Shown here one piece after another: positions 16,651 to 54,539 of a stretch of 64,000 bases of DNA. The position numbers and the translations under genes were made by a program. The DNA is from a virus (Duplodnaviria > Caudoviricetes). The stretch spans positions 27,189-91,188 of IMG/VR virus record IMGVR_UViG_3300011152_000015; one strand, 5' to 3'. The notes below the pieces were generated by a model. It ran no database searches. It was given only the letters and a program-made list of their open reading frames with translations, and was not told where the DNA came from. Positions within the stretch are counted from its first letter, which is position 1; the number at the start of each line of letters is the position of its first letter.

Positions 16651-16755
16651 CCTTTTCCCCGGTGCTACACGCCAAAACGGCGTCCTACAATGTAGCACCG
16701 CCCCTGAAAAAATGGGCAAAAACAGGCGAAAACGAGCAACAATCAGACAGCCGAA

Positions 16756-16875
16756 ATGCCAGAGAAAACCGCCTCCACGCCAGCAACCACGCGCCATGCA
16801 CTGTCCCGCCGCTTCAGCGTGGCGCCGATGATGGATGGGATCGACTCAAAGCTCTGCAAGCCCCGTATTTCCTGA
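16756..16875 (+). pseudogene. dusA: 5' fragment of tRNA-dihydrouridine synthase A, broken at the att junction
   Basis: Translates MPEKTASTPATTRHALSRRFSVAPMMD then GIDSKLCK..stop instead of the conserved WTDRHCR. Confidence 0.8.
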
Positions 16876-32726: not shown

Positions 32727-33671
32727 TTAGGAAAGTGATAAACCTTGCAACTGACTCAGTGGGATTACGTGAGTCGAGTCTTGATCAACGAATCCGTCCA
32801 GTGGCATCCCCTTTTTCCACATCCTGTGTCTAGTCGCACCTAAAATCTTTATCTGATCGTCTTCATCAAGCGATTTCAGATGCTCGTCGAAACTGTCAGG
32901 CACTGGATCATCGTCGTCAAAAATCGCGATCATTGTGGTACGGCATCCTGGATGGAACGGAGGCACTTTCTTTTTCGGGTCGCTGACCTTGAATTTCTTT
33001 CCGTTCTGGGATGCACAAGTCAGTGTTGTTCGCGTGTCCAAGATCGCACTGAGTTGGTACATCTCGACGCCGGCCTCCTGAAACCCCAGCAGATCTGCAT
33101 TGGCTGTCACATGAGCCGCAGCCGTCCGCACCAATATCTCGATATTTCTACGCGAGGCATTAAACGGATTGACCGGATCTGACACCACAGCATCAACGAT
33201 TTTGCTCACAGGCAGCCCGTTAACCACTCCTAACCGCACCGCCCTCTTAACAGCATTCTGCGTGGCCAAGCTCTGCTCGCTGACCCACTCCCGGAGCAAT
33301 TTGCCATCAAAGGGATCACTTTCAATAAAAGACCGGATGAAGTCCTCGGACGTCTGCGCACCACCCAGATCAACCTCAAGCGCATCCCCCACCCAATCGG
33401 CCTCAGCTTTGTACAGCTGCTCAAGCTCGTCGACGAGATCGCGCTCCATTGCGCTGTACTGATCGCTGATTGCTCGATCGATCTTGTCGAGCTTTCTCCT
33501 TAGCTTGTACACACTCAGGATCGCACCGCGCTTTACGTCCGCCTGTAGCTCTTCGGCTACCTGAGTCTTCAGTTGCTGCAACTGTGCTACAGCCCCACGG
33601 GCAATTCGGGTGTACTGCCCCCGCAACTGGATCTGCCTGCCGATCGCCTTCTTTGCAGTGAGCTTTGCCAT
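32727..33671 (-). CDS. Head morphogenesis / minor head protein (SPP1 gp7, Mu gpF family)
   Basis: LVRTA, AILDTRTTLTC, PPFHPGCRT. Confidence 0.9.
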   Translation of the reverse strand: MAKLTAKKAIGRQIQLRGQYTRIARGAVAQLQQLKTQVAEELQADVKRGAILSVYKLRRKLDKIDRAISDQYSAMERDLVDELEQLYKAEADWVGDALEVDLGGAQTSEDFIRSFIESDPFDGKLLREWVSEQSLATQNAVKRAVRLGVVNGLPVSKIVDAVVSDPVNPFNASRRNIEILVRTAAAHVTANADLLGFQEAGVEMYQLSAILDTRTTLTCASQNGKKFKVSDPKKKVPPFHPGCRTTMIAIFDDDDPVPDSFDEHLKSLDEDDQIKILGATRHRMWKKGMPLDGFVDQDSTHVIPLSQLQGLSLS

Positions 33672-37507: not shown

Positions 37508-38671
37508 TTAGTGTCCGCCGAGGCGCAGGGCGCGTTCCGGACTCACGGTTTTTAGGCCGCACAGGGTCTCGAACTTCCACTGAGTGGACTCGGTGCGCGG
37601 CTCGTACCAACGGAGCATGCGGAGCGAGATACCGGTGCGCGGATCAGACATCTGTGCGATGTTCACGCCAGCCGCGTCTTCAGGCACTTCAAGGTTGCGG
37701 AACGCGATGAGGAACGCGGATTTGGTAAAGGCCAGGTCGATCGGGTGATCGCCAAGGACGGTTACGGCGGAACCAGCGGCAATGCCTTCCAGGACTGCTG
37801 GGTATACCGGTACTGCAGCGCCAGAGGTGTCAGCGGTGACTACAAAAGTCTGGTGGCTACCAGCAACAGTCAGGACATCGCCTTTGACAAACGTAGCGGC
37901 ACCAACGCCGTCCAGGGTCAGTACTGTTGCGCCCACGGAGGCCGGAGCTGCCATGGTGATCCCGGCGTTGGCCGAAGCGGTGCCAGCAACGTGGTACGGA
38001 GCCTGAACGTCCGAGTACAGATCAAAACCGTATTTGCGACCGATCAGTCCCTGGCTGACAACACTGGCATCGCCGCTCTCGTTGATCTTTGAGAACTCCA
38101 GGAGCAGATCAGCTTCGGTGTCCGAGGTCAGGACGATGCTGCGACCGTTGAGGATTTTGCGGTTCTGCATTTCCTTACGCGCAGCGATCAAATCCGACTT
38201 GTCACGGCCAGCGGTCGAAGCAGGGTTGCCCGAAATGTACGGAATGTCCTTGTACAGATTAAACAGGTTTTTGTTGATGGTGCGCGCCAAGGCATCAACA
38301 GCAGCTTCCGCAGCAGATGGAAGGGTCAGGGAGTTTGCGTGAGACAGGAACTCGGCGTCTTTCATCGCAAACTGCTTGTACAGATGGCGATCCAGTTTCA
38401 CGTCGATTTTGCCGGCAGTGATGTCTTCCGATTGCGAGCCAGCAGAGTCGGTCGGATGATCGTCGGCGTCAGAGAACTCGATCGGCTTAGCGATTCGGAT
38501 CGTGTCACCGTGGTTTTTCGACTCGTCTGCGGTGTTGATGCTGACTAGGTTCGGCATGGTCAGCTGACCAAACAAACGGTCGACGGCGAGAGGCAGAATA
38601 ACCTCAGTCATCAGGGCTTCGGTGTCATTGCCGTGGCGCACGAGGGCCAGGAGCGGGAGCATTGCAGTCAT
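37508..38671 (-). CDS. Major capsid protein (P22 coat-like, HK97 fold)
   Basis: GDTIRI.KP, IGRKYGFDLY, FVKGDVLTVAG insertion domain, GISLR, host-like codon bias. Confidence 0.9.
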   Translation of the reverse strand: MTAMLPLLALVRHGNDTEALMTEVILPLAVDRLFGQLTMPNLVSINTADESKNHGDTIRIAKPIEFSDADDHPTDSAGSQSEDITAGKIDVKLDRHLYKQFAMKDAEFLSHANSLTLPSAAEAAVDALARTINKNLFNLYKDIPYISGNPASTAGRDKSDLIAARKEMQNRKILNGRSIVLTSDTEADLLLEFSKINESGDASVVSQGLIGRKYGFDLYSDVQAPYHVAGTASANAGITMAAPASVGATVLTLDGVGAATFVKGDVLTVAGSHQTFVVTADTSGAAVPVYPAVLEGIAAGSAVTVLGDHPIDLAFTKSAFLIAFRNLEVPEDAAGVNIAQMSDPRTGISLRMLRWYEPRTESTQWKFETLCGLKTVSPERALRLGGH

Positions 38672-38789
38672 TTTTTCACCTGTTCTTTTTGTTTTTATTG
38701 GTGATGGATATGGAGGTTTGACGCGGCATCAGCCCACGAGGCTAGATGTTTCCGGCACAACCGGAGGGGCCCGAAAGCCCCGAATTGAA

Positions 38790-39560
38790 TCAGTTAATCA
38801 CGATCTCGCCTGATGCTCTTTTTGCGAGCAAGGCTTTCTTTTCGTCCGGGCTAGCAGTTAGCAGAGTACGTTGCCACTCAGCTGTACTCACTGTCTTGCC
38901 TGCGCCATTGACGCCGCGCGATCCAGAGCCTGGCATTTGCTTGAAGTAGTGCGGTTTCGTTGCGGTGAGCCCAGAGATCCACTCATCCGGGGTCAGGGGC
39001 CTGCCGTTCTTACCAATGGCAATGTTCCCGCTTGAGTCGCGTGCTACGAGCTCTCCGGCGTCATTGAGCTGCCAAGTGTTGCCTGCAACGGACATCAGAT
39101 CATCAAGAGCCGAGGGGTGAAAGAACTCATTTTTGAGCGCCACTTGGCCAATTGATTGCTTGATCTGAAACTGCTTGAGCTTAAGTCTTTCGCCATCAAC
39201 AGCCTTTCGCAGATCTTCTTTTTCAGCTTGCTCTGCTGCCAGTTTTTCCTGCCATGTAGAGCTGTTTGCGTTGATGCGCTTGTCGAGCAAAGATTGGAGG
39301 TCGAGCTTGCCAGCCTTTAGGGCTTCGAGGTCATCCTTTTCTTGGATGCCTGACTCAAAAGCTTTCATGCGCTCGGCTAGAGTTTTCTTTTCGTTTAAAA
39401 GCTCAGCGTTTTTGTTCTTGAGCGGAGCTACTTCCTTTTCGACGTGAGATTTGAGGAAGTCGAGAAACGCAGGGTTCTCAGCAAGAGTGTTGAAGTCCAA
39501 AGGTGGAACTTCTTCTTCACCGAAACGAATGAGGCTTACGAGCTTTAGTCGCTGAAACAT
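38790..39560 (-). CDS. Capsid scaffolding protein
   Basis: LKNKNAELLNEKK coiled coil, PHYFK...GSGS; directly upstream of the capsid gene. Confidence 0.8.
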   Translation of the reverse strand: MFQRLKLVSLIRFGEEEVPPLDFNTLAENPAFLDFLKSHVEKEVAPLKNKNAELLNEKKTLAERMKAFESGIQEKDDLEALKAGKLDLQSLLDKRINANSSTWQEKLAAEQAEKEDLRKAVDGERLKLKQFQIKQSIGQVALKNEFFHPSALDDLMSVAGNTWQLNDAGELVARDSSGNIAIGKNGRPLTPDEWISGLTATKPHYFKQMPGSGSRGVNGAGKTVSTAEWQRTLLTASPDEKKALLAKRASGEIVIN

Positions 39561-39646
39561 TAAGTCCCCCAAGGACGTGTTTTCTTATTGTTATGTCCCA
39601 TTATAACAACGGCAAAACACAAAGGGGGAGTAAATGCAAATTTATT

Positions 39647-40881: not shown

Positions 40882-41301
40882 ATGCTTACGACCCTTCCCG
40901 ACCTTTCGCTCAGCCAAATCCCGCTCCCCCTACAGCTCTGCAAGCTCAGAGCGGGCTTCCCAAGCCCTGCTCTCGATTACGTGGAGGATCGGTTGACGCT
41001 CAACGACATCGTCAAACTCGACCCTAGGTACTGCTATCTGTGCCTTGTGGAAGGTGATTCGATGATCGATTACGGCATCCAGCCTGGTGATGTAGCCGTC
41101 ATCAGCCGCCGTGATACAGCAAGGCCAGGAAAGATCGTGGTGATTAGCATCGACGGCCAAAACACACTCAAGATGCTCTCGGAGGACGCTCAGGGCCCTG
41201 TCCTGCTCGCTGGCAACAGTGCATACCCATCGTTACGCCCGCTGGATGGTGAGGAATGGGTTTATCACGGGGTGCTCATCGCATGCACGCGCCTGTTTTA
41301 A
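40882..41301 (+). CDS. umuD: UmuD/RulA-like Pol V subunit
   Basis: AGFPSPA cleavage site, GDSM, TLK. Confidence 0.9.
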   Translation: MLTTLPDLSLSQIPLPLQLCKLRAGFPSPALDYVEDRLTLNDIVKLDPRYCYLCLVEGDSMIDYGIQPGDVAVISRRDTARPGKIVVISIDGQNTLKMLSEDAQGPVLLAGNSAYPSLRPLDGEEWVYHGVLIACTRLF

Positions 41302-42593
41302 AGCCGGAGTGGCGTTTGAGCGCAAATGCCAAAAAGGTGTTTGGGCTTGTTGATTGCAATAAATTTTATGCCTCTTGTGAGTCCCATCCCTTGTGGCGTC
41401 CGGATCTGATCGGCAAGCCGGTGGTTGTGCTCAGTAACAACGATGGGTGTGTCATTGCTATGAGCATGGAGGCCAAAAGGCTCGGGTACAAAATGGGCGA
41501 TCCGTACCACAAGCTGGAGACCAAGCTGCGCAGTGATGGAGTGCAGGTTTTTAGCTCGAACTACACGCTTTACGATGACCTTTCCGGGCGCGTGATGATG
41601 ACGTTGGCGGAAATGGTGCCGGAATTAGAGGTCTATAGCATTGACGAAATGTTCGCCGACCTGACCGGGGTTCCAGGGCTTCAGGGGTTCGGGGAGGAGA
41701 TGCGGAACCGAGTCTGGGAATGGGTTGGTATCCGTGTCGGGGTTGGTATTTCGGCTACTAAAACTCTGGCCAAGCTGAGCAACTGGGCTGCTAAAAATTG
41801 GAAGGGCCTGGGAGGCGTTGCTGTCGTGCTTGACGATAAGAGACACGAATTGCTGCTCAGGCGGGCGCCAGTTGACGAAGTTTGGGGTGTTGGCAGGCGA
41901 TACGCGGATCGACTCAAAGCTATGGGGGTCGAGACGGCTTTGCACCTGGCTTGCTGCGACGACCATAAAATTATGGATGAATTTGGCGTTGTGCTGAGGC
42001 GGACGGTGCTGGAACTGCGTGGAGTGCCTTGTGCTGAATTGGAGCTACAGACCCCTCCCAAGCAACAGATTGTCAGCTCTAGGGCATTTGGAGCTCGGCA
42101 GAAAGGTTGGAAGTCGATCGAGCAGTCTATTGCTAGCTACACCGCTCGCGCTGCCGAAAAACTGCGTGCCCAAGGTTCAGTCTGCAGGCGCGTAGACGTA
42201 GGCTTAATCGTTAGAAAAGCCACTGACGACAGCTTCCAAGACACCTGGTCAACTTCTTCGGCCAAGCTCATCCAACATACAGATGACACACTGGTGTTGC
42301 AGGGCGCGGCTGTTGAATTGGCTAAGAGAATCTTCGATAACAACGCAGTGTATGCAAAGTCTTCGATAGCCTTGAGTGAGATCTGTCAACCCAGCGACTT
42401 GAGCCAAGACATGTTCGCTCAAAAACCAACTCAGAGCGAACTATCCAATGTGTTGGACACCATCAATTCCAAGTTCGGACGTGGAACCCTACGCTCTGGG
42501 GTATTGGTCGGAGATATGGCTTGGGCAATGAAACGCAACCATCTCAGCCCTAGTTACACTACCAAGTTATCTGACTTGCCAAGACTGAAATAA
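41256..42593 (+). CDS. umuC: UmuC/RulB-like Y-family polymerase; start may be TTG 41316
   Basis: DCNKFYASCE, VLSNNDGC, YSIDE, W.MKR..LSP.YTT. Confidence 0.93.
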   Translation: MGLSRGAHRMHAPVLKPEWRLSANAKKVFGLVDCNKFYASCESHPLWRPDLIGKPVVVLSNNDGCVIAMSMEAKRLGYKMGDPYHKLETKLRSDGVQVFSSNYTLYDDLSGRVMMTLAEMVPELEVYSIDEMFADLTGVPGLQGFGEEMRNRVWEWVGIRVGVGISATKTLAKLSNWAAKNWKGLGGVAVVLDDKRHELLLRRAPVDEVWGVGRRYADRLKAMGVETALHLACCDDHKIMDEFGVVLRRTVLELRGVPCAELELQTPPKQQIVSSRAFGARQKGWKSIEQSIASYTARAAEKLRAQGSVCRRVDVGLIVRKATDDSFQDTWSTSSAKLIQHTDDTLVLQGAAVELAKRIFDNNAVYAKSSIALSEICQPSDLSQDMFAQKPTQSELSNVLDTINSKFGRGTLRSGVLVGDMAWAMKRNHLSPSYTTKLSDLPRLK

Positions 42594-42610: not shown

Positions 42611-43270
42611 CTACAGCCCCAAATCCCCAGCAAACAAACCATCGACTAGATCGTGCTTGCCAGCTTTATGTAGTCGCTCGCGGAACTGCTTAATAAATTC
42701 CTTATCGCCAGTCAAGTACAGCTCAACTTCTTTTTCGTTCTTGCATTCTCTAATATAAGCAGCTTTTTCAGGTTCTACCATTTCAAACCTGCGAATAAAC
42801 TCTTCACGCTTTTTCTCATGGAATCTTTCAATCAAGCTTTTCAAGTTTAGCCCTCCTTTAATCATGATCGAAAAGTCTGTGCCCGCGTAACGATAAACAG
42901 CACGCCAAAATGAAAGGCTCTTACTAAAAAACAGAGCCCAGTAAAACTCAGGTGCCGCATTATCATGGCCGACTACAATGCGTGTAAAGCGCTGCATAAA
43001 GCCTACTTCAAAGGCAATCCCTGCGATCACATCACTCAGCAGCTCCTCAAACTCCTCACCATCCGCATCCCCCTGCACTACTTCCCATACTTTTCCAAAC
43101 CCCTTTTCAGCAAAATACGACTCAGGGAAGTACAGATACTTTGAGTACAAAATAGTAATCAGATCACGCGGATCATCAAACCTGACATTTTCAAAAGTGA
43201 CGTGATCTTCCTGGGAATATAGGGCTGCTGGAAATACCCATTCCAAATACTTAATGACCGACCAATTCAT
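42611..43270 (-). CDS. Hypothetical protein with C-terminal FAGDLGL
   Basis: 219 aa; terminal motif shared with five other ORFs. Confidence 0.75.
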   Translation of the reverse strand: MNWSVIKYLEWVFPAALYSQEDHVTFENVRFDDPRDLITILYSKYLYFPESYFAEKGFGKVWEVVQGDADGEEFEELLSDVIAGIAFEVGFMQRFTRIVVGHDNAAPEFYWALFFSKSLSFWRAVYRYAGTDFSIMIKGGLNLKSLIERFHEKKREEFIRRFEMVEPEKAAYIRECKNEKEVELYLTGDKEFIKQFRERLHKAGKHDLVDGLFAGDLGL

Positions 43271-43668
43271 GGATTGCTGCCTACAGCTTTATTATAGTAA
43301 GCCACCAGCGTCTGCCACACCGCCTCTTTGTCATCGTGCAGGAAATACCAGTACAGCTTTGCAAGCAGACTGTCGAGATGATGGTTTTTCCCTGCATCCT
43401 TTAGTATCTCGCACACAAACTTATCGAGATACTCTGTCTCACAAGTAGTTCTTGGATCGCCGAGCGGAAAAGTATAAACAATGTTAGCTAGACCCTCAAA
43501 CTCCCAATCAACAAAACTTGTAGTCTCAGACATCTCATAAACATCAGTTATACGCCTGATAAAGTTGGGAAAGTCCTGGAACTCCAGATCGCCATCAAAA
43601 AACTTGTCACCCGCACAGCTGACGCCGCCATAATTACAAAATTGCAGGATGTTTTGGAGATACATCAC
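43267..43668 (-). CDS. Hypothetical acidic protein without the tag
   Basis: 4-nt overlaps with both tagged neighbours. Confidence 0.65.
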   Translation of the reverse strand: MMYLQNILQFCNYGGVSCAGDKFFDGDLEFQDFPNFIRRITDVYEMSETTSFVDWEFEGLANIVYTFPLGDPRTTCETEYLDKFVCEILKDAGKNHHLDSLLAKLYWYFLHDDKEAVWQTLVAYYNKAVGSNP

Positions 43669-44489
43669 AGCCCGAGATCCCCGGCAAACAAGTGATCACG
43701 CTGTGCAGAAGACATGTGAGCCTTCCTTGTGCTCAAAAAGCCGGTGTCGCCCTTCAGGAGTCTCTCAACCTCAATGATGTCCCGGCACAAAGGGTGCAGC
43801 GCGTAAACGTGAGGGCGATGGAGCTTTATGTTTTCCATTATTATCGGCCTCAAATCAGCAAGAATATCTTTGTATGTTGCAGATCGGTCGAGGCCTAGCG
43901 ACTTAAAAGAGTCATCATCGTTGTGATGTTCGTACGACCTAATTACCGCCTCATCATAATTTTCAAGTATTAGCGACGCCAGTGAGTGATCTCTTTCGGC
44001 CTGGACGCCCTCATATTCCTTATCACTTACAAGCCATGTAAACCAAAGCCTGCGGGATATTTCTATCCTTTTGTAGCGCCTAATCTCAAGATACTTATTG
44101 ATAAAATCCGCAGGAGTCTTGGCTGATAGGGCTGCGGTAGCAAAGTCCGGAACACTACCAACCTCATTTTCAGTCCAGCAGTTCAACTTGAAACTTATTA
44201 CAGTTGCGACTTCCAAAAGTGAATAACATTCGCGCTCGACAAAACCACCGTCCGGCGTTTGGAGCTGCAAACGATAGCGATCGGTGTCGAAAACAAAGCC
44301 GCCCGCGATACCCAGATAGTCGTAATTCTCAAATTGCTGATTGAGGACAGACTCAAGATATTCGTGTCGCAAAACGTCCATCCCCAACCCCCTGCAAGCC
44401 CGCAAAGCCTGATGCCACAACCACGCTTTTGGCTTCAAAAACCTAGCCAGGCGGCGCTCGCGAGGTGAGATAAAGTACAGCATACCCAC
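43665..44489 (-). CDS. Hypothetical protein with C-terminal FAGDLGL
   Basis: 274 aa; shared terminal motif. Confidence 0.75.
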   Translation of the reverse strand: MGMLYFISPRERRLARFLKPKAWLWHQALRACRGLGMDVLRHEYLESVLNQQFENYDYLGIAGGFVFDTDRYRLQLQTPDGGFVERECYSLLEVATVISFKLNCWTENEVGSVPDFATAALSAKTPADFINKYLEIRRYKRIEISRRLWFTWLVSDKEYEGVQAERDHSLASLILENYDEAVIRSYEHHNDDDSFKSLGLDRSATYKDILADLRPIIMENIKLHRPHVYALHPLCRDIIEVERLLKGDTGFLSTRKAHMSSAQRDHLFAGDLGL

Positions 44490-44576
44490 CCATGAGACTA
44501 ATTATGGCATTTATTGACACTTTGGCAATGTGGGAGGGCAATGTCAAGAAGCCCCTGAGCGTTGGGGCTGGCGGCT

Positions 44577-44843
44577 TTACTGGGCTGCTAGTCGTTCGAG
44601 GCGTAAGCGGGTTAGGCAGGCGTGGAACTCAGCCATACATACCGCTGCGCACTGCTGCTGCCACCTTGGCAGCTTGTTGAGGTCTGCGCGAGGGGCTGGG
44701 GTGCGTGTGTCTTGCTGAGCCAGCCGAAAGGACTCGTCTACGCAAAAGTCTTCGACTTGGGGCTCAATCTGAAAGAGCTTATAAGTGCCGGAGGTTCTTT
44801 GAATTTCAGTCTTAGCGTCTGCAAATATTTTTGAAATGTCCAT
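44577..44843 (-). CDS. Hypothetical protein
   Basis: AACAACAATAAGAGAGG leader. Confidence 0.55.
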   Translation of the reverse strand: MDISKIFADAKTEIQRTSGTYKLFQIEPQVEDFCVDESFRLAQQDTRTPAPRADLNKLPRWQQQCAAVCMAEFHACLTRLRLERLAAQ

Positions 44844-44915
44844 GTCCTGCCTCTCTTATTGTTGTTGTGTTCCCACAATTCCAATATGCAGACGGAGCAA
44901 ATGGAGCAGCAACAA

Positions 44916-45569
44916 TTATTTCAGAGAAATCCAAAATGCTCCGACTGTTGCGACAAATAGCAGGATTCGCTCTGTATTTTTCACAAGCACGGGAGCTTTT
45001 TTGTTGCGAGCATCCAGATACGTCAGCCATAGACGGTAGTAGTAGCTTTTGAGAGACATGGGATAATGGGCGCTTGTGTACATCGAATATTTCAAAAAAC
45101 GCCTAAATAGACCTTCGAGCCTTGCCACTGTGACTTTAGATGGCCGCGAGTATAGACCTATTGCTATAAACTCTTCCTTAACACTTGATAATTTGGATTT
45201 ATATGGATAAAGCAGAACCATTACTTCCCCGCTAGGAGACTGAGAAAATGAAATCGTAGCTCCTCGCTCCCAATGAGATTTTAGGTTTCGCTTGCCATCT
45301 TCAGTAAAGGATACGATCCCAAGATGACGTACTCCGGAGTGAATTTGGAAACCGCCCTGTACACGGCTCTCATAAACTGGGTAGTTCCTATAGTCATCGA
45401 AATGCCTATGAAAATAGAGCCGACCAAAAACCTCATGATCCAAGCTCTGTTGAAGCCTTTTAAAGGCGTTTTCAGCCCTATCGGTTAGGTCAACCATTTC
45501 CATACGCTTGATCAACAGCTGGTCACAGGCGCTTTCGAACTCAGTTTGTATCTTACGAATTCCTTTCAT
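44916..45569 (-). CDS. Hypothetical protein with a C-terminal hydrophobic anchor
   Basis: Ends ILLFVATVGAFWISLK. Confidence 0.6.
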   Translation of the reverse strand: MKGIRKIQTEFESACDQLLIKRMEMVDLTDRAENAFKRLQQSLDHEVFGRLYFHRHFDDYRNYPVYESRVQGGFQIHSGVRHLGIVSFTEDGKRNLKSHWERGATISFSQSPSGEVMVLLYPYKSKLSSVKEEFIAIGLYSRPSKVTVARLEGLFRRFLKYSMYTSAHYPMSLKSYYYRLWLTYLDARNKKAPVLVKNTERILLFVATVGAFWISLK

Positions 45570-45611
45570 GACAGTCCCAAAGCCCCGGAGGCGCCGGGGC
45601 TGCACAGATAA

Positions 45612-45983
45612 TTAGGCCTGCAGCCAGGACTCGACCTCAGAAGCGCCGTACTCTGCTTTCCACGCTTTCAGAGTTTTGTGATTGCCGCCCTTTGTTTCCA
45701 CGACTTCCTCAGTATGCGGGTTAAAGTAACGCTTAACTGCACGCTCTTTACGCTGACCACCACTCGACTGCCCTTGAGCTTGTGCACGCCCGCGTCCGGC
45801 TTGCGGATCTAGAATGTCGATAATGCTACGAAGCGACATGCCGTACTTTTCCATTAGCTTGCGAAGTTTGTCTTCAAATTCAAGCTCTTTTTGCAGATCT
45901 GCGCTGCCTTTCAGGGCTTCCAAGGCTTCGAGTTGCTCAGCGATTTGCTTTTCGAGGGCTCTGTATTCTGCTGCTTTTGACAT
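45612..45983 (-). CDS. MvaT/MvaU-family (H-NS-like) nucleoid protein
   Basis: MSK.AEYR..E, ELEFE.KL..LM.KYG.SL, Y.NPHT.E.VETKGGNHK.LK.WK. Confidence 0.92.
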   Translation of the reverse strand: MSKAAEYRALEKQIAEQLEALEALKGSADLQKELEFEDKLRKLMEKYGMSLRSIIDILDPQAGRGRAQAQGQSSGGQRKERAVKRYFNPHTEEVVETKGGNHKTLKAWKAEYGASEVESWLQA

Positions 45984-46104
45984 GTGCGTCGTTCCTGCCT
46001 TTGATTAAGTGCTATGAAATATACAGCGGCTGTTAAGCTTGTCAATTAGTTGAGCGCGATGATGTTGTACGGCATGGGTAAATTTAGGTTGGAGTATTGC
46101 ATTA

Positions 46105-46120
46105 CTGTATGTGCATACAG
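46105..46120. promoter_or_regulatory. LexA (SOS) box
   Basis: CTG-TATGTGCATA-CAG upstream of the ATG at 46161. Confidence 0.8.
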
Positions 46121-46160
46121 TATCTTTAGATATAGATCAATAATAAGAAGAGAGAAGATC

Positions 46161-46382
46161 ATGAGCAGACAGCCAGTGGTGCTTAACAGCGGACTTGAAG
46201 TGCATTTTATCCAAGAATTGTATGGAAATGACGACGCGCTTTTGGACGTGTACGAGCTGAGGAAGAATTTTGGTAAGCGCAGCAAAAGCCTCTGGAGATT
46301 TGAAGTGCCTCAGGGTTCGGGCTTTGAAGTCATCAGGGAAAGACTAAAAGAATCTTGGGATCGGCTAGGCATTGCTAGCTAA
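46161..46382 (+). CDS. Small hypothetical protein, probably SOS-inducible
   Basis: SOS box, A-rich leader and own terminator at ~46388-46408. Confidence 0.65.
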   Translation: MSRQPVVLNSGLEVHFIQELYGNDDALLDVYELRKNFGKRSKSLWRFEVPQGSGFEVIRERLKESWDRLGIAS

Positions 46383-46433
46383 ATACAAGCCCCCGCTGGG
46401 GGCTTTTTGTTTGCAAGAGTATCTCTTAACCAA

Positions 46434-46619
46434 TCATCTACCCTCAGCACCGTCCTCATGCCTTGCTGTTACCCATATCGTTGTAGTTGACGGATCAAGG
46501 TACTTAACGATACGCCCTGTCTTATCTAACACAATTATCTGCCCATCACCTCTCGCTTCAACCGTCCTCACTTCAGCCGCTTCGCATACTCCGGAGTAAA
46601 AATCTACTGGCACGTCCAT
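46434..46619 (-). CDS. Small hypothetical protein
   Basis: AACAATAAGATGAGG leader. Confidence 0.5.
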   Translation of the reverse strand: MDVPVDFYSGVCEAAEVRTVEARGDGQIIVLDKTGRIVKYLDPSTTTIWVTARHEDGAEGR

Positions 46620-46766
46620 ACATGACCTCATCTTATTGTTATATGTTTATTTTAGAAGTGAGCTACAACAGGGTCTACTAGACAACAAAATAGTTTTTGG
46701 TATACAGCAAATAAATATTGATCCGCAAGTAGCTCAGTGTGAAAATTGAAGTATGGAGGAACAACT

Positions 46767-47078
46767 ATGTTTGCAATACTAAACCAAGCCCTGCTAGCCC
46801 AAACTGTCCTATTAATCCTGGCGGCGTCGATGACTTATGTCGAACATAGTGCAAACACAGACAATATTCACAAATCCACGTTCTTCCGCACCTACTTGGC
46901 ACACATGAGCGTACAAGCCCTGTTCACCCTTATCGCCCTTATCGCTAGCACATACCTCCTGCCTGCCTGGTCATTTGAACTCAAAACCACGTTCCCCTAT
47001 ATTTTTGGGGCTGCTGGGGTTGCTGTAGCTACAGTGTTTGCTGGTTACAAAGTAAGGAGCGGCCATGAAACTGCATGA
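46767..47078 (+). CDS. Three-TM membrane protein
   Basis: GGAGG RBS; three hydrophobic stretches; heads the + strand tagged operon. Confidence 0.65.
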   Translation: MFAILNQALLAQTVLLILAASMTYVEHSANTDNIHKSTFFRTYLAHMSVQALFTLIALIASTYLLPAWSFELKTTFPYIFGAAGVAVATVFAGYKVRSGHETA

Positions 47079-47670
47079 CACTTGGAGCGATAACGGCATG
47101 AAGATCCTGGAGGTTGCGGGGCATGATGGTGTGCAGGAATTTCAGCTCGTACATAGTTTCGATTTTGGCCTGCTGCCTCTATTTGATGTTGATTGCACTA
47201 GCGCCAAAAATGCAGTTGACGAGACGAAGCAGTTTCACGACGGTTTGAGTCTTGATCAACAGTGTACAGTAGAGTGCGCAGAAGCTTTGTATGTACTGTT
47301 TGAGGAAGCTGGGGCACAAGGCACAGAGGAAATGCTTTGCAAGCTGTCGGATTTCGCAGCCAGTCGTGGATATGTTTTGTGGGGCGAAATCTATGAGGAA
47401 CAAGCGCTCATAAGTGATAAGTCGTTGAGGATATTTAAGCTGTCGGAAGAGGAATTCTGTTTTGAAATAGATGTCCACGGCAGTAGAGTTAAATACACAT
47501 TGTCTGTTGACAGTGCTGAAGATTGCAAGATCGAACCAGACTGTGGTGTGATTGGCTGGCTTAACGAATTTAGTCTTGGCAATCTGCGTCAAATATATGC
47601 AGAAGATCCTGGCAAAAATCATCTCGAACAATATGTAGATCGGTCATTTTCAGGCGATCTTGGGCTCTAA
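47065..47670 (+). CDS. Acidic hypothetical protein with C-terminal FSGDLGL
   Basis: 201 aa; AGGAG RBS. Confidence 0.75.
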   Translation: MKLHDTWSDNGMKILEVAGHDGVQEFQLVHSFDFGLLPLFDVDCTSAKNAVDETKQFHDGLSLDQQCTVECAEALYVLFEEAGAQGTEEMLCKLSDFAASRGYVLWGEIYEEQALISDKSLRIFKLSEEEFCFEIDVHGSRVKYTLSVDSAEDCKIEPDCGVIGWLNEFSLGNLRQIYAEDPGKNHLEQYVDRSFSGDLGL

Positions 47671-47695
47671 AAGATTGGCTAAGAAGGACTCTTGT

Positions 47696-47857
47696 ATGCA
47701 AACAAGGATTATCGATATCACAGCCGAGATCAAGCTGCGCATTGAGCAAAAACCTGACAATCTCGGCTGCAACATCGACATGATTTATCAAGGCCCTCAC
47801 GGCTACGAAGTGGCTTGGGTGACGGATCTGCAACTTGCGGGCGATCTAGGGCTATAG
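47696..47857 (+). CDS. 53-aa protein with C-terminal LAGDLGL
   Basis: AAGGA RBS; terminal motif. Confidence 0.65.
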   Translation: MQTRIIDITAEIKLRIEQKPDNLGCNIDMIYQGPHGYEVAWVTDLQLAGDLGL

Positions 47858-48130
47858 ACCATGACGACAGAAATTTATGTAGTAAACGATTACCTGCAAG
47901 TGCGAGACAGGTCTACAGCCGAAAGAGATGATACCAACCTCTTTTTCCACACGCAGCTGGGCTACCAAGTCGTGCTGCTATCCAAAAACAGGAAAACTGT
48001 AACGCCCGAAACCGCCATCGCTCAAGCCCACAAGCTCTGGAACTCCGTAAGCGCTCCATAAAACCCATCTTCAAACCGACCGATGAACTGGACGATGCTG
48101 TGCTCCTGATTTCTTTCAGGAGCGGCTGCC

Positions 48131-48490
48131 ATGATGCGTCCCGATGCCAAGGTGCAGAAGGTTTACCTCTATCCCAAGCCCGTCGACTTCCGTAAATCCA
48201 TCAATGGCCTGGCCGCCTTGGTCGAGCTGGACATCAAAGTGGAAATCTTCAACCCGGTGCTGTTCGTGTTTCTCAACCGCACTCGCAGCCAGGTGAAGAT
48301 CCTCTACTGGGAGCGCAACGGCTTCTGCCTCTGGCTCAAGCGCCTGGAGGCCGAGCGTTTCAAGACCAAGCCCGATGCCGGTGATGAAGCCATCGAGCTG
48401 ACGGTCGACGAGTTGAACTGGCTGCTCGATGGCATCGACCTGTGGCGCAACCGTCCACATCAAGTCCTGACGCCGCGTTACGTGGCCTGA
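48131..48490 (+). CDS. tnpB: IS66 accessory protein TnpB
   Basis: PVDFRKSINGL, KILYWERNGFCLWLKRLE. Confidence 0.93.
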   Translation: MMRPDAKVQKVYLYPKPVDFRKSINGLAALVELDIKVEIFNPVLFVFLNRTRSQVKILYWERNGFCLWLKRLEAERFKTKPDAGDEAIELTVDELNWLLDGIDLWRNRPHQVLTPRYVA

Positions 48491-48509
48491 GCCGGTATAA
48501 TCCAGCGCC

Positions 48510-50012
48510 ATGAAATTTGGCGCTGACGCTCTTCCCGACGATCCGATTCTTCTCAAGGCTCTTGTCCTGCAGTTGCAGGAAGAGAACACCCTGCTGCGCC
48601 ACAAACTGTTCTCCCCCAAGTCCGAGCGCAGCCCAGAAGACGCCGACTCGCCGCAGCTGTCGCTGCTCAACGAGGCGGAGACGCTGCTCGACTCTGCACC
48701 CGAAGCGCCTGCCGAAGAGATCGAAGAAGTCGTTGCTCCCGTCAAACGCCGCGGCAAGCGCAAGCCGCTGCCGGCCAACCTGCCCCGCGTCGAAGTCATC
48801 CATGAATTGCCTGAACACGAACTGACCTGCGCGTGCGGCTGCCGCAAGCAGGCCATCGGCATCGAGACCAGCGAACAGCTGGAGATCATCCCGATGCAGG
48901 TGCGGGTGATCCGCCATATCCGCAAGACCTACGCCTGCAAGGCCTGCGAAACCGCACCGGTCACCGCCGACAAGCCGGCCCAGCTGATCGAAAAAAGCCT
49001 GGCCAGCCCCAGCGTGCTGGCCATGCTGCTGACCACCAAATACGCCGACGGCATCCCGCTGTACCGCTTCGAGAAGATGCTCAGCCGCCATGGCGTCGAC
49101 ATCCCTCGCCAGACGCTGGCGCGCTGGGTGATCCAATGCGGTGAACAGCTGCAACCTTTGCTCAGCCTGATGCGCGATACGCTGTTTGAGTACCCAGTGC
49201 TGCACTGCGACGAAACCCGCTTGCAGGTGCTGCACGAACCCGGACGCGATCCCACCGCGCAATCCTGGATGTGGGTGCAAACCGGTGGCCCGCCTGACAA
49301 GCCCGTGATCCTTTTCGACTACTCGACCAGCCGCGCGCAGGAAGTACCGTTGCGCCTGCTCGACAGCTATCGGGGCTACCTGATGACCGACGACTACGCC
49401 GGCTACAACGCCGTGGCTACGCAAGATGGCATCGAGCGCTTGGCCTGCTGGGCGCATGCGCGGCGCAAATTTGTCGAAGCACAGAAAATGCAGCCCAAGG
49501 GTAAGACCGGACGTGCCGACATGGCGCTGAACCTGATCAACAAGCTCTACGGCATCGAGCGCGACGCCAAGCCCCTCAGCGACCCCGAGCGTTTCGATGC
49601 GCGCCAGCAACGCAGCCAGCCGATCCTCACCCAGCTCAAGACCTGGCTGGACAAAACCCAACCGCAAGTCGCTGGGCAAACTGCTTTAGGCAAGGCCGTG
49701 AACTACCTGGCCAGCAACTGGAGCCGGCTCGTACGCTACGTCGAGGGTGGGCACCTGCCGATCGACAACAACCGCGCCGAGAACGCCATCCGCCCGTTCG
49801 TCATCGGTCGTAAGAACTGGCTATTCAGCGACACGCCCAAAGGCGCTACCGCCAGCGCGCAGATCTACAGCCTGATCGAAACCGCCAAGGCCAACGGGCA
49901 AGAACCCTACGCCTGGCTACGCCACATCCTTGAGCGCCTCCCGACCGTAAGCAGCGTCAAAGACTACGAAGCGCTCTTGCCTTGGAACTGCGCAACGGCC
50001 TCTGCATCCTGA
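48510..50012 (+). CDS. tnpC: IS66 DDE transposase TnpC
   Basis: [39 protein letters not shown]. Confidence 0.95.
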
Positions 50013-50733
50013 TCGTAAGGCCTCGCCAATGGTAGGTGGGGTTTATGGAGCGCTTACGGAACTCCGATTACCGTGGCGTTTTGTTTTCAAATCACCGAAT
50101 AGCGCAGTCGTTCTACCATATCGTTGGCGAGGCTGGAGGGGATATGGTTGTGGATGCTTTGGAAAGCAAGGGTCTGCGGGTTGAGAGTGCTCAGTACGGC
50201 AGTGACACGGACGATTACTATGCTGGACTTGGCAGCTTTTACTTCATCCAAAATGATGCGTGCTTTTTCGAGATTCCGGGCGGCGTGTTGAAGGTGTATG
50301 CCAGGACTAACGGGCTATCTGGGGTTTTGAGCGCTGATGTACCAGGCGTGATCAGAGATCTGGCTGCTGAAGTGCTGTTCGAGTCATACCGGGGGAATCC
50401 TGATAAAGAGCACCTGCAGCGGTATGCGGATGATAGGTTTTCTGGGGATCTGGGGCTATAAAAGCGTGTGCTGCGTGAAATCTTGGGCACTATTCCACTG
50501 CGGACGCTCAAGATTTTAAATTAGAGAAGCTAATTCTAAAGTTAAAAACCACTGAATCAACCTGTCCGGTTAATACTTTTTCCTTTAAATTGACAAGTTG
50601 GCAATATTTTTACCAGTCGTCGGCTCATAGTTAAAACCAGTTCTTTTATATCAAAACCTGTTGCTCGGTAGCTTGCTCAATCAGATAATAGAAATGTAGA
50701 GAAGAGATCTACATAACAAGAGAGAGATACATC

Positions 50734-50955
50734 ATGCTACGCAGAGAATTTAAAATAGGAAGCGATATCACCGTCCTGCCAGATCAAGAAATCATGTTAA
50801 ATGGCAAAATCCTTGATTGCTACGACGTCAGGAAAGATTTCGAAGAATACAGAACTTCGATCGCATTTGTGCGTGTGCCACATCGCTCTACGCGAGCAAA
50901 GATAATCGAGGTTATTCAGGCCAGGTTGAAAGAAGAAGAAGATCAAGCCGCATAA
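50734..50955 (+). CDS. Small hypothetical protein
   Basis: A-rich leader; terminator at ~50969-50992. Confidence 0.6.
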   Translation: MLRREFKIGSDITVLPDQEIMLNGKILDCYDVRKDFEEYRTSIAFVRVPHRSTRAKIIEVIQARLKEEEDQAA

Positions 50956-51109
50956 CCTGAAAGCCCAGAAGCCCCTCCCTTGGGGCTTTTTTGTGCCCGT
51001 CTTATTTGACACCAAATTGCTTTCAGGTATATCCGGGGTTGGGTATTGCAACACCAATTGCTAAAAGAAGATAATTAATCACAGTAGAAAAATAACAATA
51101 AGGAACCAT

Positions 51110-51517
51110 GTGGTGGACATCATTCATGCGTATAAAGAACACCTAAAAACATTGGGCCCCGAAGCGACGTCAGCTAGGATATCGGAGGTTAGCAAGAAGT
51201 ATGAATACCTGATCGACCTTAGAAATGACTGGCAGCTTAACGGAAATAAAGAATCTCAATATGAGTTCCGAAACTCTGGCAGGTGGAAGCCGATCAGATC
51301 ATCAAATCTACATGCTGTAAAAAACATTGCAAAGGCAGCGAGATGTGCCATAAAGCAAAATAGGCAGTACATGATCGGTGGGAAAGTGCATTGGGTATTC
51401 CCGCCAGGATTCTTGGACGAGCTCCTTGATAGTTTGATCTCTGACATCAGAAACGGCATGAATGGAGCATCAGACACAACCAGGGACTTCTTCTTCAGCA
51501 TGGATCTAGGCTTGTAA
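51110..51517 (+). CDS. Hypothetical protein with C-terminal FSMDLGL
   Basis: AATAACAATAAGGA leader; variant terminal motif. Confidence 0.7.
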   Translation: MVDIIHAYKEHLKTLGPEATSARISEVSKKYEYLIDLRNDWQLNGNKESQYEFRNSGRWKPIRSSNLHAVKNIAKAARCAIKQNRQYMIGGKVHWVFPPGFLDELLDSLISDIRNGMNGASDTTRDFFFSMDLGL

Positions 51518-51610
51518 ACCCCGCAGCCCCAGAGTCCCCGCACTGCGGGGCTTTCCGTTCAAAGCCCTTACCATCAGCAGCTCAGGCACGCGGACTTTGA
51601 CATCAAACCA

Positions 51611-52939
51611 TTAGGCAGCGACGTACTCAGTTGCCAGCCTGTCGGAGTTGTCTTGAAGGTCGAAGTCATGACGCAAGACCCCCCTGCGCTTGAGCTCAGT
51701 GATGTAATCATGCTGGCTGAGGTCACCGTTAGCGCGAGCCGTGGCCAGTGCTGTGAGCTGCTCGACAGAAGCGTTGATGCCGTAATCCTTGTGCACGTCG
51801 ACCACAAAATCAGGATTGGATACGCGAGAGAACCGGGCCATCCAGCCGTAAACCTTTTCCAGAGCAGACTCCAGGCCAGCGGCCATGGAAGCAACCTGGT
51901 TATTATTCTCGCCAGCCTTTAGGGCACGGCCCGTCGCAGTCTCCACAGCCCCTGTGTTCTGCAGCATCTCGATGCCAAAGCTGGCCATGTTGTTTTCGAG
52001 GTCTACAAGAGCCTGCCGGCCTGTGCTAATGGCGCTACCGGTGTGCTCAACGTACTTTAGATCTGAATTTTCGCTACCAACAACAGCTTGGTCGATGCCG
52101 ATCACCAGCTCGCACTCTTCCGGTATCCCCTTGCCGAACAAGATCGGTACGGAGGCAACGTGGATGATGTGTCGCATGTCACTGTACTGCTGCCAGTGTG
52201 CGATGTTCATAAAGCACAAATCCATCAGTGGTGGCGGGCAGAACAGCGTGCCCCGAGTCTCAGCGGGATTGGAGTGCACGGGAGCAACAGGAATTTCATC
52301 GAGCCCGAATGCTTGCCAAGGCTCGATCATAATGTCATCACCGCCTTCCCCACGTTCCCAAAGAGACCACATCACACGGCCATCCCTCTTCCTGAAAGCC
52401 CGCACACGCTCGATCGATTTCTCTCCCCACTCACCGTCATCGACCGTTGCTGTTTCTCTGATCCGGATCTCCGATAGCCGTAGGTCTTCATCCATTCTGT
52501 AGCCCACGATGTCATCCGCGCTCAGCCAATAAGCGTATGGGTCGCCACCGCCCAGCGGAGCATCGACACAGATGAATGTGGTGCCCTGCCAAAAGGCATC
52601 TTCGAACAGCACCTTGGCGAGGGCACTGACAGAAGCCCCTTTGCCATCGATATTTGTACTGAAACGCTCAGCAAGCTCTGCATTCCCTTCACTCACGACA
52701 ATCACTGGTCGAGCAAAGGGCTTTGAACTCAAATTCTTGACGACCCGGCTACCAAAAGGTGTCAGAACTGTGCGCTCCAGTCGGGCCTGATAGCCTTTCT
52801 GGGTTTCTCGGGGCTCTTTGGGTAGATACGTTGTGCCAGCTTTGCGCATTGCAACAGTTCCGCCGCGCAAATCTCGAATTGGTTTGCGATCTGAATAAAA
52901 CTGCTGACAAACAGGGGATTTGTCGAATACTGATGACAT
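51611..52939 (-). CDS. Portal protein (DUF4055-like)
   Basis: GGT.AMR.AG..YLPK.P.E....Y..RL, PPL.DL...NIAHWQ..SD, ETAT. Confidence 0.88.
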   Translation of the reverse strand: MSSVFDKSPVCQQFYSDRKPIRDLRGGTVAMRKAGTTYLPKEPRETQKGYQARLERTVLTPFGSRVVKNLSSKPFARPVIVVSEGNAELAERFSTNIDGKGASVSALAKVLFEDAFWQGTTFICVDAPLGGGDPYAYWLSADDIVGYRMDEDLRLSEIRIRETATVDDGEWGEKSIERVRAFRKRDGRVMWSLWERGEGGDDIMIEPWQAFGLDEIPVAPVHSNPAETRGTLFCPPPLMDLCFMNIAHWQQYSDMRHIIHVASVPILFGKGIPEECELVIGIDQAVVGSENSDLKYVEHTGSAISTGRQALVDLENNMASFGIEMLQNTGAVETATGRALKAGENNNQVASMAAGLESALEKVYGWMARFSRVSNPDFVVDVHKDYGINASVEQLTALATARANGDLSQHDYITELKRRGVLRHDFDLQDNSDRLATEYVAA

Positions 52940-52970
52940 GGTCTTTACGACTCTTATTATTTGTTGAGTA

Positions 52971-54539
52971 TCAATGTCCCATTATACCGTAGGACACACG
53001 GGCGGTCGGTCGTTTCCACGTTAAGCGATATGCTAGGGCGTCCCAACTATGATCATCGGGGCCTTTGGCAACTGAGTCTGGCTCATCCTCATCTCGATAA
53101 AGATCAGGGATTGTCCGAGTTAAAAATTTGCACCCGGAAAATATATAGATATGTGGCTTTTCCCGATTACGGTCGACAGTTGCTTGAAGTCTCTCAAACA
53201 TAATCTGAGCTGAAGTAATTCGACTTCCAGCACGCTTGTCTGACTGAGTAAACGTAATTCCTTCTTTCTCAAGCTCCTTAGCAACCGTCGGGGCTGTTCC
53301 TTCATCAACCTTGGAGCCGTTATATATCTGGTTGTCTGCTGGCCCAGCGGTTATACGAGCGTGATTTTTCAGCACTGTCGTCTGCAGCTTCACTTCTCGG
53401 GCTTTTAGGCGAGCGCCGATCTTGCCAGCGCTCAGAAGTAGACCTAGATCCCGTTTCTGCTGCTTGCCCTCAGGCGTCAGCGGCGTCCCGTAATCCTCAC
53501 CACATACGATCAGCGATCCTTTTGGAGGGCAGAAAACTTTGCCGCCGACCGTGACGGCTTCTCCATTCGCTTCTGCAGTCCACAGACAGCAAAAAGGGGT
53601 TGATTGACCGTAGTCAAAGCTCCTATCAACCTTCCATGCCGCTGGAATCTCAAACGGCTGCAGGATGTGCACGTCGCGATCCCAAACCCTGGCAAACATT
53701 GCCGTATCGTCCACAACCTCCCAATTCCCGTAAAGCCAAGCCTCCCTGAGCATGGGATCAGCAATGTTCATCAACCACGCTTTATATTCGAGGTCGACGT
53801 ATTTGTTTTCAAAAATGGTGCCGAAGATCGCGCAGCGCTTCCATTCGATTTCGACAGTGTTGCCGTCCTCGTCTATGAGGGATTTGATGGTGCACTCGAT
53901 CTCGCCATTGCGTTTGCCGTCGATGAATCGTTCTTTCACCCACCGCTTGCCGATGCCCCATGGATTGGTCATGGCTCGCACTTGTTTCGGGGGCATCAAG
54001 GGCTGCCGGGCTGTCGGTTGGTACGCAGTCCGGAGGGTCGATAATAGCTTTTCGTAGATCTCGTCGGTGGCCCAGGTCGTGAGCTCATCAAACCCAATAT
54101 AAGTGAACTGCTGGCCGTGAAATTTGGCTTCGTACTGCGACGCTTTTTCGATGTATTGGAAGATGAGCTGCTCACCCTCAGGGAACGTCCAGGTACGCTC
54201 AGATTTGTTGTAAGTCGCGCCAGGAAATAGCCGTGGAAAGACCTTCTCCGCCTCGTTTATGAGGTCGCGTAGCGCAGAGTACTGCCGACGAAGAATCACA
54301 CCACGCCAGTAAGCGCCCCACCCCTTCCCCACGTGTTGCGCAAACCCCATCAACAGGCAGGCGGACTTGCCATTTCCCCGCGTGCCATGGAACAGAACCT
54401 CGTGCACGAGCGTGTCTGGCTGGCCCACGATTAGGAACATTTCCTGGGAGCTAAGGCCTCCAGCTTTGTTCTTGGTGGGTTCCCAAATCACCTTGCGGAC
54501 AGCTGACGTGAGGGCCTTGCGAGGCAACATCGCGGTCAT
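52971..54539 (-). CDS. Terminase large subunit
   Basis: GTRGNGKS, IGFDELT, MTNPWG.G, FDYG, DHSWDALAY. Confidence 0.92.
   Translation of the reverse strand: MTAMLPRKALTSAVRKVIWEPTKNKAGGLSSQEMFLIVGQPDTLVHEVLFHGTRGNGKSACLLMGFAQHVGKGWGAYWRGVILRRQYSALRDLINEAEKVFPRLFPGATYNKSERTWTFPEGEQLIFQYIEKASQYEAKFHGQQFTYIGFDELTTWATDEIYEKLLSTLRTAYQPTARQPLMPPKQVRAMTNPWGIGKRWVKERFIDGKRNGEIECTIKSLIDEDGNTVEIEWKRCAIFGTIFENKYVDLEYKAWLMNIADPMLREAWLYGNWEVVDDTAMFARVWDRDVHILQPFEIPAAWKVDRSFDYGQSTPFCCLWTAEANGEAVTVGGKVFCPPKGSLIVCGEDYGTPLTPEGKQQKRDLGLLLSAGKIGARLKAREVKLQTTVLKNHARITAGPADNQIYNGSKVDEGTAPTVAKELEKEGITFTQSDKRAGSRITSAQIMFERLQATVDRNREKPHIYIFSGCKFLTRTIPDLYRDEDEPDSVAKGPDDHSWDALAYRLTWKRPTARVSYGIMGH

Follow-up and report, generated by a model that had tools for sequence, protein, structure and literature searches.

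A 64,000-nucleotide stretch of viral DNA (IMG/VR record IMGVR_UViG_3300011152_000015, positions 27,189 to 91,188; hereafter the window, meaning the whole stretch) holds a prophage in which six open reading frames (ORFs), designated T1 to T6 (Table 1), end in DLGL directly before the stop codon. We find that this ending, the LGL tail, is a real, strictly terminal motif that is conserved at the peptide level and carried by many unrelated orphan proteins on three kinds of Pseudomonas mobile DNA, namely a temperate phage lineage, island or prophage-like DNA and a megaplasmid. On the strength of sequence comparisons, we tentatively favour a chromosomally encoded, lineage-specific Pseudomonas protein acting in trans as the reader of the tail, which would then serve as a docking peptide. 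Two other candidate readers are not supported: the capsid of the phage and, for these hosts, a secretion machine encoded on a plasmid.

These ORFs belong to the accessory ('moron'-type) gene set of a temperate Pseudomonas phage that has a P22-type coat. Besides four intact genes there is one that an IS66-family insertion has split and one with an internal deletion. An earlier note, made from this DNA alone, had listed six ORFs with DLGL right before the stop, and all six exist. The corresponding DNA pattern occurs six times in the window against 0.17 expected, a count reached by none of 100 shuffles, and six of the ten DLGL tetrapeptides in the six-frame translation precede a stop (binomial P ~2e-6). 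No further DLGL-stop end lies elsewhere on the 91 kb contig. The first Leu is encoded by TTG, CTC, CTT, CTA, CTG and CTA, the Gly codons vary too, and TAG, TGA and TAA are all in use; the scrambled Leu codons and the three stops are exactly as had been claimed. Because Leu, Gly and stop codons differ among the six copies, conservation is at the level of the peptide. A DNA-level repeat, such as an attC-like site or a terminator, is ruled out as the source of the ending, since third codon positions and stops vary. Beyond GDLGL, the full motif reads [DE](-10)-x-x-Phi(-7)-[GAS](-6)-x-[DE](-4)-L(-3)-G(-2)-L(-1)-COOH, in which Phi is hydrophobic.

None of the six proteins has a significant family in Pfam, PHROG or PADLOC; a match of T5 to a PHROG 'anti-restriction' family (E 0.026) is not significant. 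Orphan genes adjoining the tagged ones likewise gave no informative family. Among phage records, the region was unmatched by megablast and T1 was unmatched by tblastn. The bodies had been described as mostly dissimilar, which requires correction for two groups and otherwise stands. T3, T4 and T5 are distant paralogues within one family of ~200 aa, as their alignment with relatives shows, although the likeness of T3 and T5 within the window is limited to the C-terminal ~40 residues (E 9e-7), and T1 and T2 are alike over their last ~44 residues (E 9e-5).

Homologues retain the tail. It is present in all 14 sequences of the T2 family, whose 13 Pseudomonas homologues (40–66% identity) all end [FL]xx[DE]LGL; LGL is invariant, compared with a mean column identity of 67%. 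An exhaustive profile search of 1.84 billion protein representatives recovered only 23 members of the T3 superfamily, of which all 19 intact ones end [DN]LG[LFV], the others being fragments or frameshifted entries. The concern that homologues might lack the terminal motif is therefore not borne out, and the T2 and T3 homologues support what an address or docking tag predicts, a peptide-level feature common to otherwise unrelated proteins. Tagged orthologues of T1 occur in two related loci (L001 and L003) and in a Pseudomonas species genome (G225); no orthologue of T6 was seen in the related loci.

The genomic setting is also shared in part. L003 contains terminase, portal, five tagged genes, MvaT, umuDC, scaffold and coat, and L004 and L005 are similar. 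G225 carries a whole syntenic prophage whose proteins are 38–64% identical to those of the window, with five tagged genes and MvaT between portal and scaffold. By contrast, L001 and L002 have three and two tagged genes, respectively, and in neither locus does a terminase, portal or coat gene lie closer than 10 kb. The MvaT paralogue accompanies the tagged genes in L001–L004 and in G225. In another genome, G017, the T1 orthologue has lost its tail and an adjoining gene of 231 aa is split in two (L120:2535-3248 and 3245-4056, G017:C79); the accessory block appears to be decaying there.

We then asked how widely the tail occurs by scanning for the strict pattern DxxF[AS]GDLGL-stop in viral contigs and in 185,579 species, each represented by a single genome. 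The scan returned one other, related viral contig and 35 places in species genomes, about half of which we estimate to be chance. Convincing matches were confined to Pseudomonas and one unclassified gammaproteobacterium, and the real ones represent a small-protein family on Pseudomonas chromosomes and a plasmid of P. fluorescens, pMPCFBP13716 (971,445 bp; genome G001).

On this megaplasmid, 146 ORFs end [DE]LG[LIM], 138 of them DLGL; counted among ~1016 non-overlapping ORFs, 144 are tagged (~14%), with a median length of 416 aa. Across the 146 tails, R occupies position -11 in 90 and D or E position -10 in 136; F, M, L or I stands at -7 in every one and G, A or S at -6 in 137; D is found at -4 in 144, L at -3 and G at -2 are each invariant, and L ends 140. 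With the tail removed, the 146 proteins fall into 91 body clusters. Of 85 tagged representatives, none matched Pfam and NCBIfam gave one stray match only. The tagged ORFs, orphans that often form paralogue arrays, are absent from the 240–420 kb backbone of the plasmid. When the window ORFs were compared with the plasmid (tblastn, phmmer), only UmuD, UmuC and MvaT matched, the last being present there in two copies. Tagged bodies of prophage, island and plasmid are mutually unrelated, and those of prophage and island have no relatives among the plasmid ORFs.

The small tagged family comprises 21 members in 20 loci, is found in about one-tenth of Pseudomonas species genomes and encodes proteins of 115–140 aa with the pattern ...L-x-x-x-L-[IV]-x-x-G-x-A...RDxxFxxDLGL, on DNA of 51–58% GC, below what we expected for a Pseudomonas chromosome. 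Of 19 homologues that reach the C-terminal region, 18 keep [DG]LG[LI], 16 of them as DLGL; the rest are truncated or frameshifted. The family is seen at loci L094-L113, L007, L010, L017, L020, L025, L027 and L030. The small gene often lies next to an Xre-type regulator or, in five loci, near an MvaT paralogue; a metallophosphoesterase gene is a further neighbour, whereas head genes are not. In L030, the small tagged gene adjoins a pPIWI_RE module.

Two further groups of matches were set aside. A seemingly conserved host protein ending EPTFSGDLGL in several genomes proved to be an artefact, an antisense match at which no ORF ends; the conserved gene on the other strand is presumably a SpoU-type methyltransferase. 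On the chromosome of G001, DLGL-stop sites match the motif only in part and look like chance, one of them in what we take to be a P2-type tail tube protein.

What might read such a tail? The carriers share only UmuDC and MvaT, and the tail is intact in genomes that have neither a Dot/Icm-type system nor this capsid, from which we infer that the reader is chromosomal; the restriction of convincing matches to Pseudomonas and one unclassified gammaproteobacterium argues that it is lineage-specific. The tail would be an exposed, short linear docking motif whose free carboxylate and two leucines could fit a pocket on a trans-acting reader, a chromosomally encoded protein of most Pseudomonas cells. 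Through it, mobile elements would direct their accessory proteins, most likely for hand-over to a cytoplasmic machine that controls turnover or location. An AlphaFold2 (AF2) model of T2 (pLDDT 79) places the tail after the last helix, with the final four residues below 50; the low confidence at these residues suggests that the tail is probably exposed.

Several points weigh against a chromosomal reader. We found no chromosomal core protein with the full tail, so that a host reader would have no native ligand. Why a housekeeping machine should receive 14% of a megaplasmid's proteins is difficult to explain, whereas a large set of effectors for the plasmid's own type IVB secretion system would be a natural reading. 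In addition, the sampled species genomes are single isolates, often drafts, and occasional contact with a plasmid secretion system could still select for the tail. We consider improbable a bolder version of the proposal, according to which a Pseudomonas chromosomal reader of LGL-COOH is used only by mobile DNA, phages, islands and megaplasmids having independently grafted the 11-residue tail onto more than 100 unrelated orphans as a dedicated sorting code, of which the travelling MvaT paralogue may be part.

A strong rival, though somewhat less likely than a chromosomal reader, is that the tail is instead a translocation signal of the megaplasmid's Dot/Icm-like system (type IVB, I-type conjugation), read by DotL–DotM. 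The prophage and island genes would then be 'exchangeable substrate loci' that use this type IVB secretion system (T4BSS) in trans, by analogy with prophage-borne type III secretion system effectors that use the chromosomal injectisome. For the plasmid alone, a large effector set would be the natural reading of so many tagged orphans in paralogue arrays, and its tag-free backbone encodes DotA/TraY (E 1e-145) and a DotL-like coupling protein. Directly upstream of the latter is a DotM homologue, which matches DotM_C at E 2e-34 and the DotM structures of L. pneumophila at E 1e-39. The last 11 residues, with acidic positions -10 and -4 and hydrophobic positions -7, -3 and -1, loosely resemble C-terminal Dot/Icm signals, and the conserved positions (-11 to -1) fall within the last 20–30 residues expected of them. 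In Legionella, DotM binds acidic C-terminal tails, and its authors propose co-evolution with other tails in other species (PMC5802825). However, the LGL tail is not Glu-rich, having just the two acidic positions and no E-block of the DotM-bound class. A complex prediction pairing the cytoplasmic domain of the megaplasmid DotM (residues 125-455, 36-row alignment) with a 40-residue tail alignment scored 0.01 against a mark of 0.32 and is not evidence either way.

The distribution of the tail argues against translocation by this system. Among 201 Pseudomonas species genomes, ~25 had one to three plausible tails, and a real ORF end was verified in 20. DotA/TraY passed the cut-off in 9 of the 201 genomes and in 1 of the 20 verified tag-positive ones (G002), which is the base rate, and 8 of the 9 T4BSS-positive genomes had no tail. 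A sample of 401 genomes contained the T2 and T3 families in G017 and G225 and a fragment in G243; DotA/TraY was absent from all three, including G225 with its five tagged genes. The tail is strictly conserved in lineages that mostly live in T4BSS-free genomes. This negative co-occurrence shifts the odds away from a secretion-system reading. The earlier note had proposed a helper type IV secretion system (T4SS) as one destination of the tag. That idea retains the analogy with the megaplasmid and its DotA/TraY, DotL and DotM homologues and loses the co-occurrence across genomes and carriers. The prophage does encode a MobA/VirD2-type relaxase (Table 1) and so may use a T4SS in trans, but the relaxase has no tail: its end, ...DDHRELAL, previously taken as weak support, has no Gly at -2, a residue that all 146 plasmid tails possess, and nothing hydrophobic at -7, and is not a tag.

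The surroundings of the dotM–dotL pair on the megaplasmid (G001:C2) include a ParM-like actin gene just upstream (L061:3210-4301 (+)) and, 2.6 kb downstream, a gene for a full-length SecA paralogue (L061:11910-14453 (-)). Elsewhere the megaplasmid encodes a Peptidase_M41 (FtsH-type) domain protein, four AAA-family ATPases, two secretins, DNA Pol III alpha, DnaB and a ligase.

A very unlikely and frankly speculative docking partner is an MvaT-family silencer, either host MvaT or MvaU or the linked paralogue, on which tagged proteins would be concentrated at AT-rich foreign DNA. MvaT is a Pseudomonas-lineage protein family, and its range matches that of the tail. The paralogue lies within the tagged block of the window and its relatives L001–L004 and G225, and MvaT and UmuDC are the sole families common to the carriers, with two MvaT copies on the megaplasmid. 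Near the small tagged genes, an MvaT gene is found within 8 kb in 5 of 27 loci, directly beside in L094 and L098, but not in the other 22. Mobile DNA of Pseudomonas, moreover, often carries MvaT paralogues, which may therefore be linked to the tagged genes through hitch-hiking, and the loci do not count as independent cases. It is also difficult to think why a silencer should be bound by more than 100 unrelated proteins.

The earlier note had also considered a protein payload addressed into the capsid. The tail would then be a cargo-loading or packaging peptide for the interior of the HK97-fold (P22-type) capsid, or for the scaffold or portal, and the tagged proteins would be packed in virions and injected. 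The position of the tagged block between portal and scaffold genes, kept in L003 and G225, is the only point in favour apart from a likeness of peptides: the cargo peptide of Thermotoga maritima encapsulin reportedly has a GDLGI core, a sequence that does not appear in the encapsulin review that we checked. Against this stand several observations. Three Pfam families, Linocin_M18, Phage_capsid and P22_CoatProtein, are all unmatched in G001 despite its 146 tails, and coat homologues, found in 3 of the 201 species genomes, are accompanied by the tail in none. Small tagged genes sit beside Xre-type regulators and MvaT, not head genes; L001 and L002 carry tagged genes that have neither terminase nor portal nor coat within 10 kb; T3 to T6 are transcribed against the late operon; and the strict pattern is almost absent from the viral contig collection, the one hit being a related contig. 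As a general role of the tail, capsid loading is untenable, and the idea of a capsid payload is barely credible on these data.

A sliding-clamp binding motif that recruits proteins to the replisome is equally hard to credit. The E. coli Pol IV C terminus QLVLGL binds the sliding clamp, D-L-G-L-COOH fits the C-terminal half of clamp motifs (QL[SD]LF, QLxLxL) and umuDC lies in the same block. However, Gln and Leu at the first two motif positions are missing (-6 is G, A or S in 137 of 146 and -5 is variable), the UmuC of the window has no tail, and 146 unrelated clamp clients on one plasmid are implausible.

Three more candidates do not fit the sequence. For an ssrA-like ClpXP degron the terminus is wrong, being L-G-L with an invariant G rather than L-A-A; a degron of another kind or an adaptor-binding site, the third option of the earlier note, may still account for the tail. 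No transmembrane helix or basic cluster follows the motif and no NCBIfam sorting signal matches it, which excludes a sortase or exosortase signal (LPXTG, PEP-CTERM). UmuD-type self-cleavage at Ala-Gly was dropped because -6 and -5 are not consistently A-G. Type I secretion signals of the protease/lipase class combine a terminal D-Phi-Phi-Phi with RTX glycine-rich repeats further upstream. The ending D-L-G-L agrees in part with such a terminus; no RTX or other Pfam domain was found in any tagged protein. The tagged bodies contain cysteines, several in T3, which we judge unusual for exported substrates.

Table 1 Features of the prophage and its accessory block in the window
Feature	Position	Strand	Remarks
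Integrase gene	15517-16797		beside change in GC
Relaxase, MobA/VirD2-type	17785-18975	+	Relaxase domain, E 1e-22
Phage_Mu_F-like head protein	32727-33671	-	E 1e-11
P22-type coat	37508-38671	-	P22_CoatProtein, E 1.9e-21; synteny with L003 and G225
Putative scaffold	38790-39572	-	named by position and synteny with L003 and G225; no family match
Coat and scaffold	37508-39572	-	right-hand border of accessory block
umuD-umuC operon	40882-42593	+	named from position-equivalents in L003 and L004 (Peptidase_S24; IMS/IMS_C/DUF4113)
T1	42611-43270	-	219 aa, orphan; C terminus ...DGLFAGDLGL
T2	43665-44489	-	274 aa, orphan; C terminus ...RDHLFAGDLGL
Promoter-like site of T2	44528-44501		upstream of T2
MvaT-family xenogeneic silencer paralogue	45612-45983	-	MvaT_DBD, E 3.7e-22; within tagged block
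Small untagged ORF	46050-46382	+	110 aa
T3	47065-47670	+	201 aa, intact member of T3/T4/T5 family; C terminus ...DRSFSGDLGL
T4	47660-47857	+	65 aa; C terminus ...DLQLAGDLGL
N-terminal fragment of T5 gene	47861-48046 (ORF 47861-48061)	+	stops at left end of IS66 copy
IS66-family insertion	48047-50056	+	tnpB 48131-48490, tnpC 48510-50012; splits T5 gene
T5	50036-50461	+	141 aa; C terminus ...DDRFSGDLGL; listed GTG start inside right end of IS66 copy
Small untagged ORF	50734-50955	+	73 aa
Promoter-like site of T6	51046-51075		
T6	51110-51517	+	135 aa, orphan; C terminus ...RDFFFSMDLGL
Terminator-like hairpin of T6	51536-51550		
Portal (DUF4055) and large terminase	51611-54539	-	portal 51611-52939; left-hand border of accessory block

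That the window holds a prophage is seen from the fall in GC from ~0.64 to ~0.50 past 16 kb, beside the integrase gene, and from its gene content, which comprises tail genes, a MuF-like protein, the P22-type coat, a putative scaffold, a DUF4055 portal and the large terminase. The reported location of the tagged ORFs between scaffold/capsid and portal/terminase genes is confirmed, with the scaffold named by position and synteny in the lack of a family match. The 12 kb accessory block between scaffold and portal contains umuDC, the MvaT paralogue, the IS66 copy and the six tagged ORFs; umuDC is also in the accessory block of L003 and L004 and is absent from the otherwise syntenic G225 prophage. 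Promoter-like sites precede T2 and T6, a terminator-like hairpin follows T6 and transcription of T3 to T6 opposes the late operon, all of which fits independently expressed accessory genes; T6 looks like a self-contained unit. Sequencing runs that match the stretch contain only small shares of it, and none of those listed is an RNA run.

Three side observations concern untagged genes of the prophage. The relaxase gene, which the integrase gene at the end of the prophage neighbours at a distance of ~1 kb, is unusual phage cargo and suggests conjugative mobilization of the element or of a piece of it. The two small untagged ORFs are paralogous to each other (E 7e-6), and both are followed downstream by tagged genes in the same orientation. 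The gene for the Phage_Mu_F-like head protein, downstream of the coat gene, has no LGL tail.

The IS66 copy accounts for the split gene. It has terminal inverted repeats that are 88% complementary and an 8 bp target duplication, GGAACTCC, at 48039-48046 and 50057-50064; it contains only tnpB and tnpC and no tnpA-like ORF. L001 carries the same gene pair (119 aa and ~500 aa), called TnpB_IS66 and DDE_Tnp_IS66. The ORF that runs into the left end of the insertion aligns with the first ~60 residues of L001:4973-5581 and L003:5149-5787. T5 is thus the C-terminal remnant of a tagged gene cut by a clean IS66 insertion. T4, in turn, is an internal-deletion derivative of a family member of 202–209 aa that retained the N terminus and the tail, as revealed by alignment with homologues from L004, L005 and L105.

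Structure prediction gave few clues to the bodies. The AF2 model of T3 reached pLDDT 78 and is confident, as is that of T2; neither had a significant match in the PDB (by Foldseek), the ESM Atlas or a wide VIA-align search; an ESM Atlas feature search for T1 and T2 also gave no usable match. Residues 1-60 of T3, a predicted beta-sheet domain (window 47065-47250), show weak likeness to the N-terminal domain of AcrIF24 and to another AcrIF protein (Z 5.2–5.5, rmsd 2.0–2.1, 52–53 residues aligned), below the level of a trustworthy fold match. We therefore treat the modelled resemblance to AcrIF24 as a lead only.

When the full text of the literature was searched for GDLGL, no description of a bacterial tag came up, nor does the publication on the megaplasmid family mention a C-terminal motif. 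A shared C-terminal address peptide is a known kind of signal; this motif and its distribution are new. Such peptides define functional classes of proteins, including secretion substrates, protease clients and compartment cargo. The LGL tail marks more than 100 family-less proteins on large Pseudomonas plasmids as well as accessory proteins of a temperate phage lineage and of island or prophage-like DNA. The prophage copies, being small (65–274 aa) and present in genomes without the megaplasmid or its secretion system, are tractable for finding the reader. Whether that reader is found or the tail turns out to be inert without the plasmid, either result would give a first functional property to many orphan genes of mobile elements.

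Known systems resemble the LGL tail in different respects. AAA+ proteases recognize C-terminal degrons, such as ssrA (...LAA-COOH) with ClpXP and non-polar tails with FtsH, and phages use degrons for timing. Like these, the LGL tail sits at the very C terminus, ends in hydrophobic residues and a free carboxylate, could be grafted onto any body and is found in a phage setting. It differs in its D-L-G-L sequence with upstream D/E and a hydrophobic residue, and we found no host protein or tmRNA tag with this ending. A second parallel is offered by lambdoid prophages of Salmonella and enterohaemorrhagic E. coli (EHEC), which carry genes for type III effectors in strains that possess the injectisome. 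There, too, accessory genes of temperate phages bear a signal read by a machine encoded elsewhere, whereas the candidate machine here is missing from nearly all carriers.

The cargo-loading peptides of encapsulins are similar in that a short C-terminal peptide addresses unrelated proteins to an HK97-fold shell (PMC7355545). Unlike them, the LGL tail is strictly terminal and does not co-occur with the coat of this phage. Dot/Icm substrates, finally, have a short signal with a mix of acidic and hydrophobic residues at the C terminus of many unrelated, mostly orphan proteins, and form very large sets, as on the megaplasmid that encodes 146 tails together with DotA, DotL and DotM homologues (PMC5802825, PMC7280309). 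By contrast, the LGL tail is a sharp 11-residue motif that ends at the carboxyl terminus rather than a loose Glu-rich block, and it is also carried by prophage and island genes in genomes without DotA/TraY.

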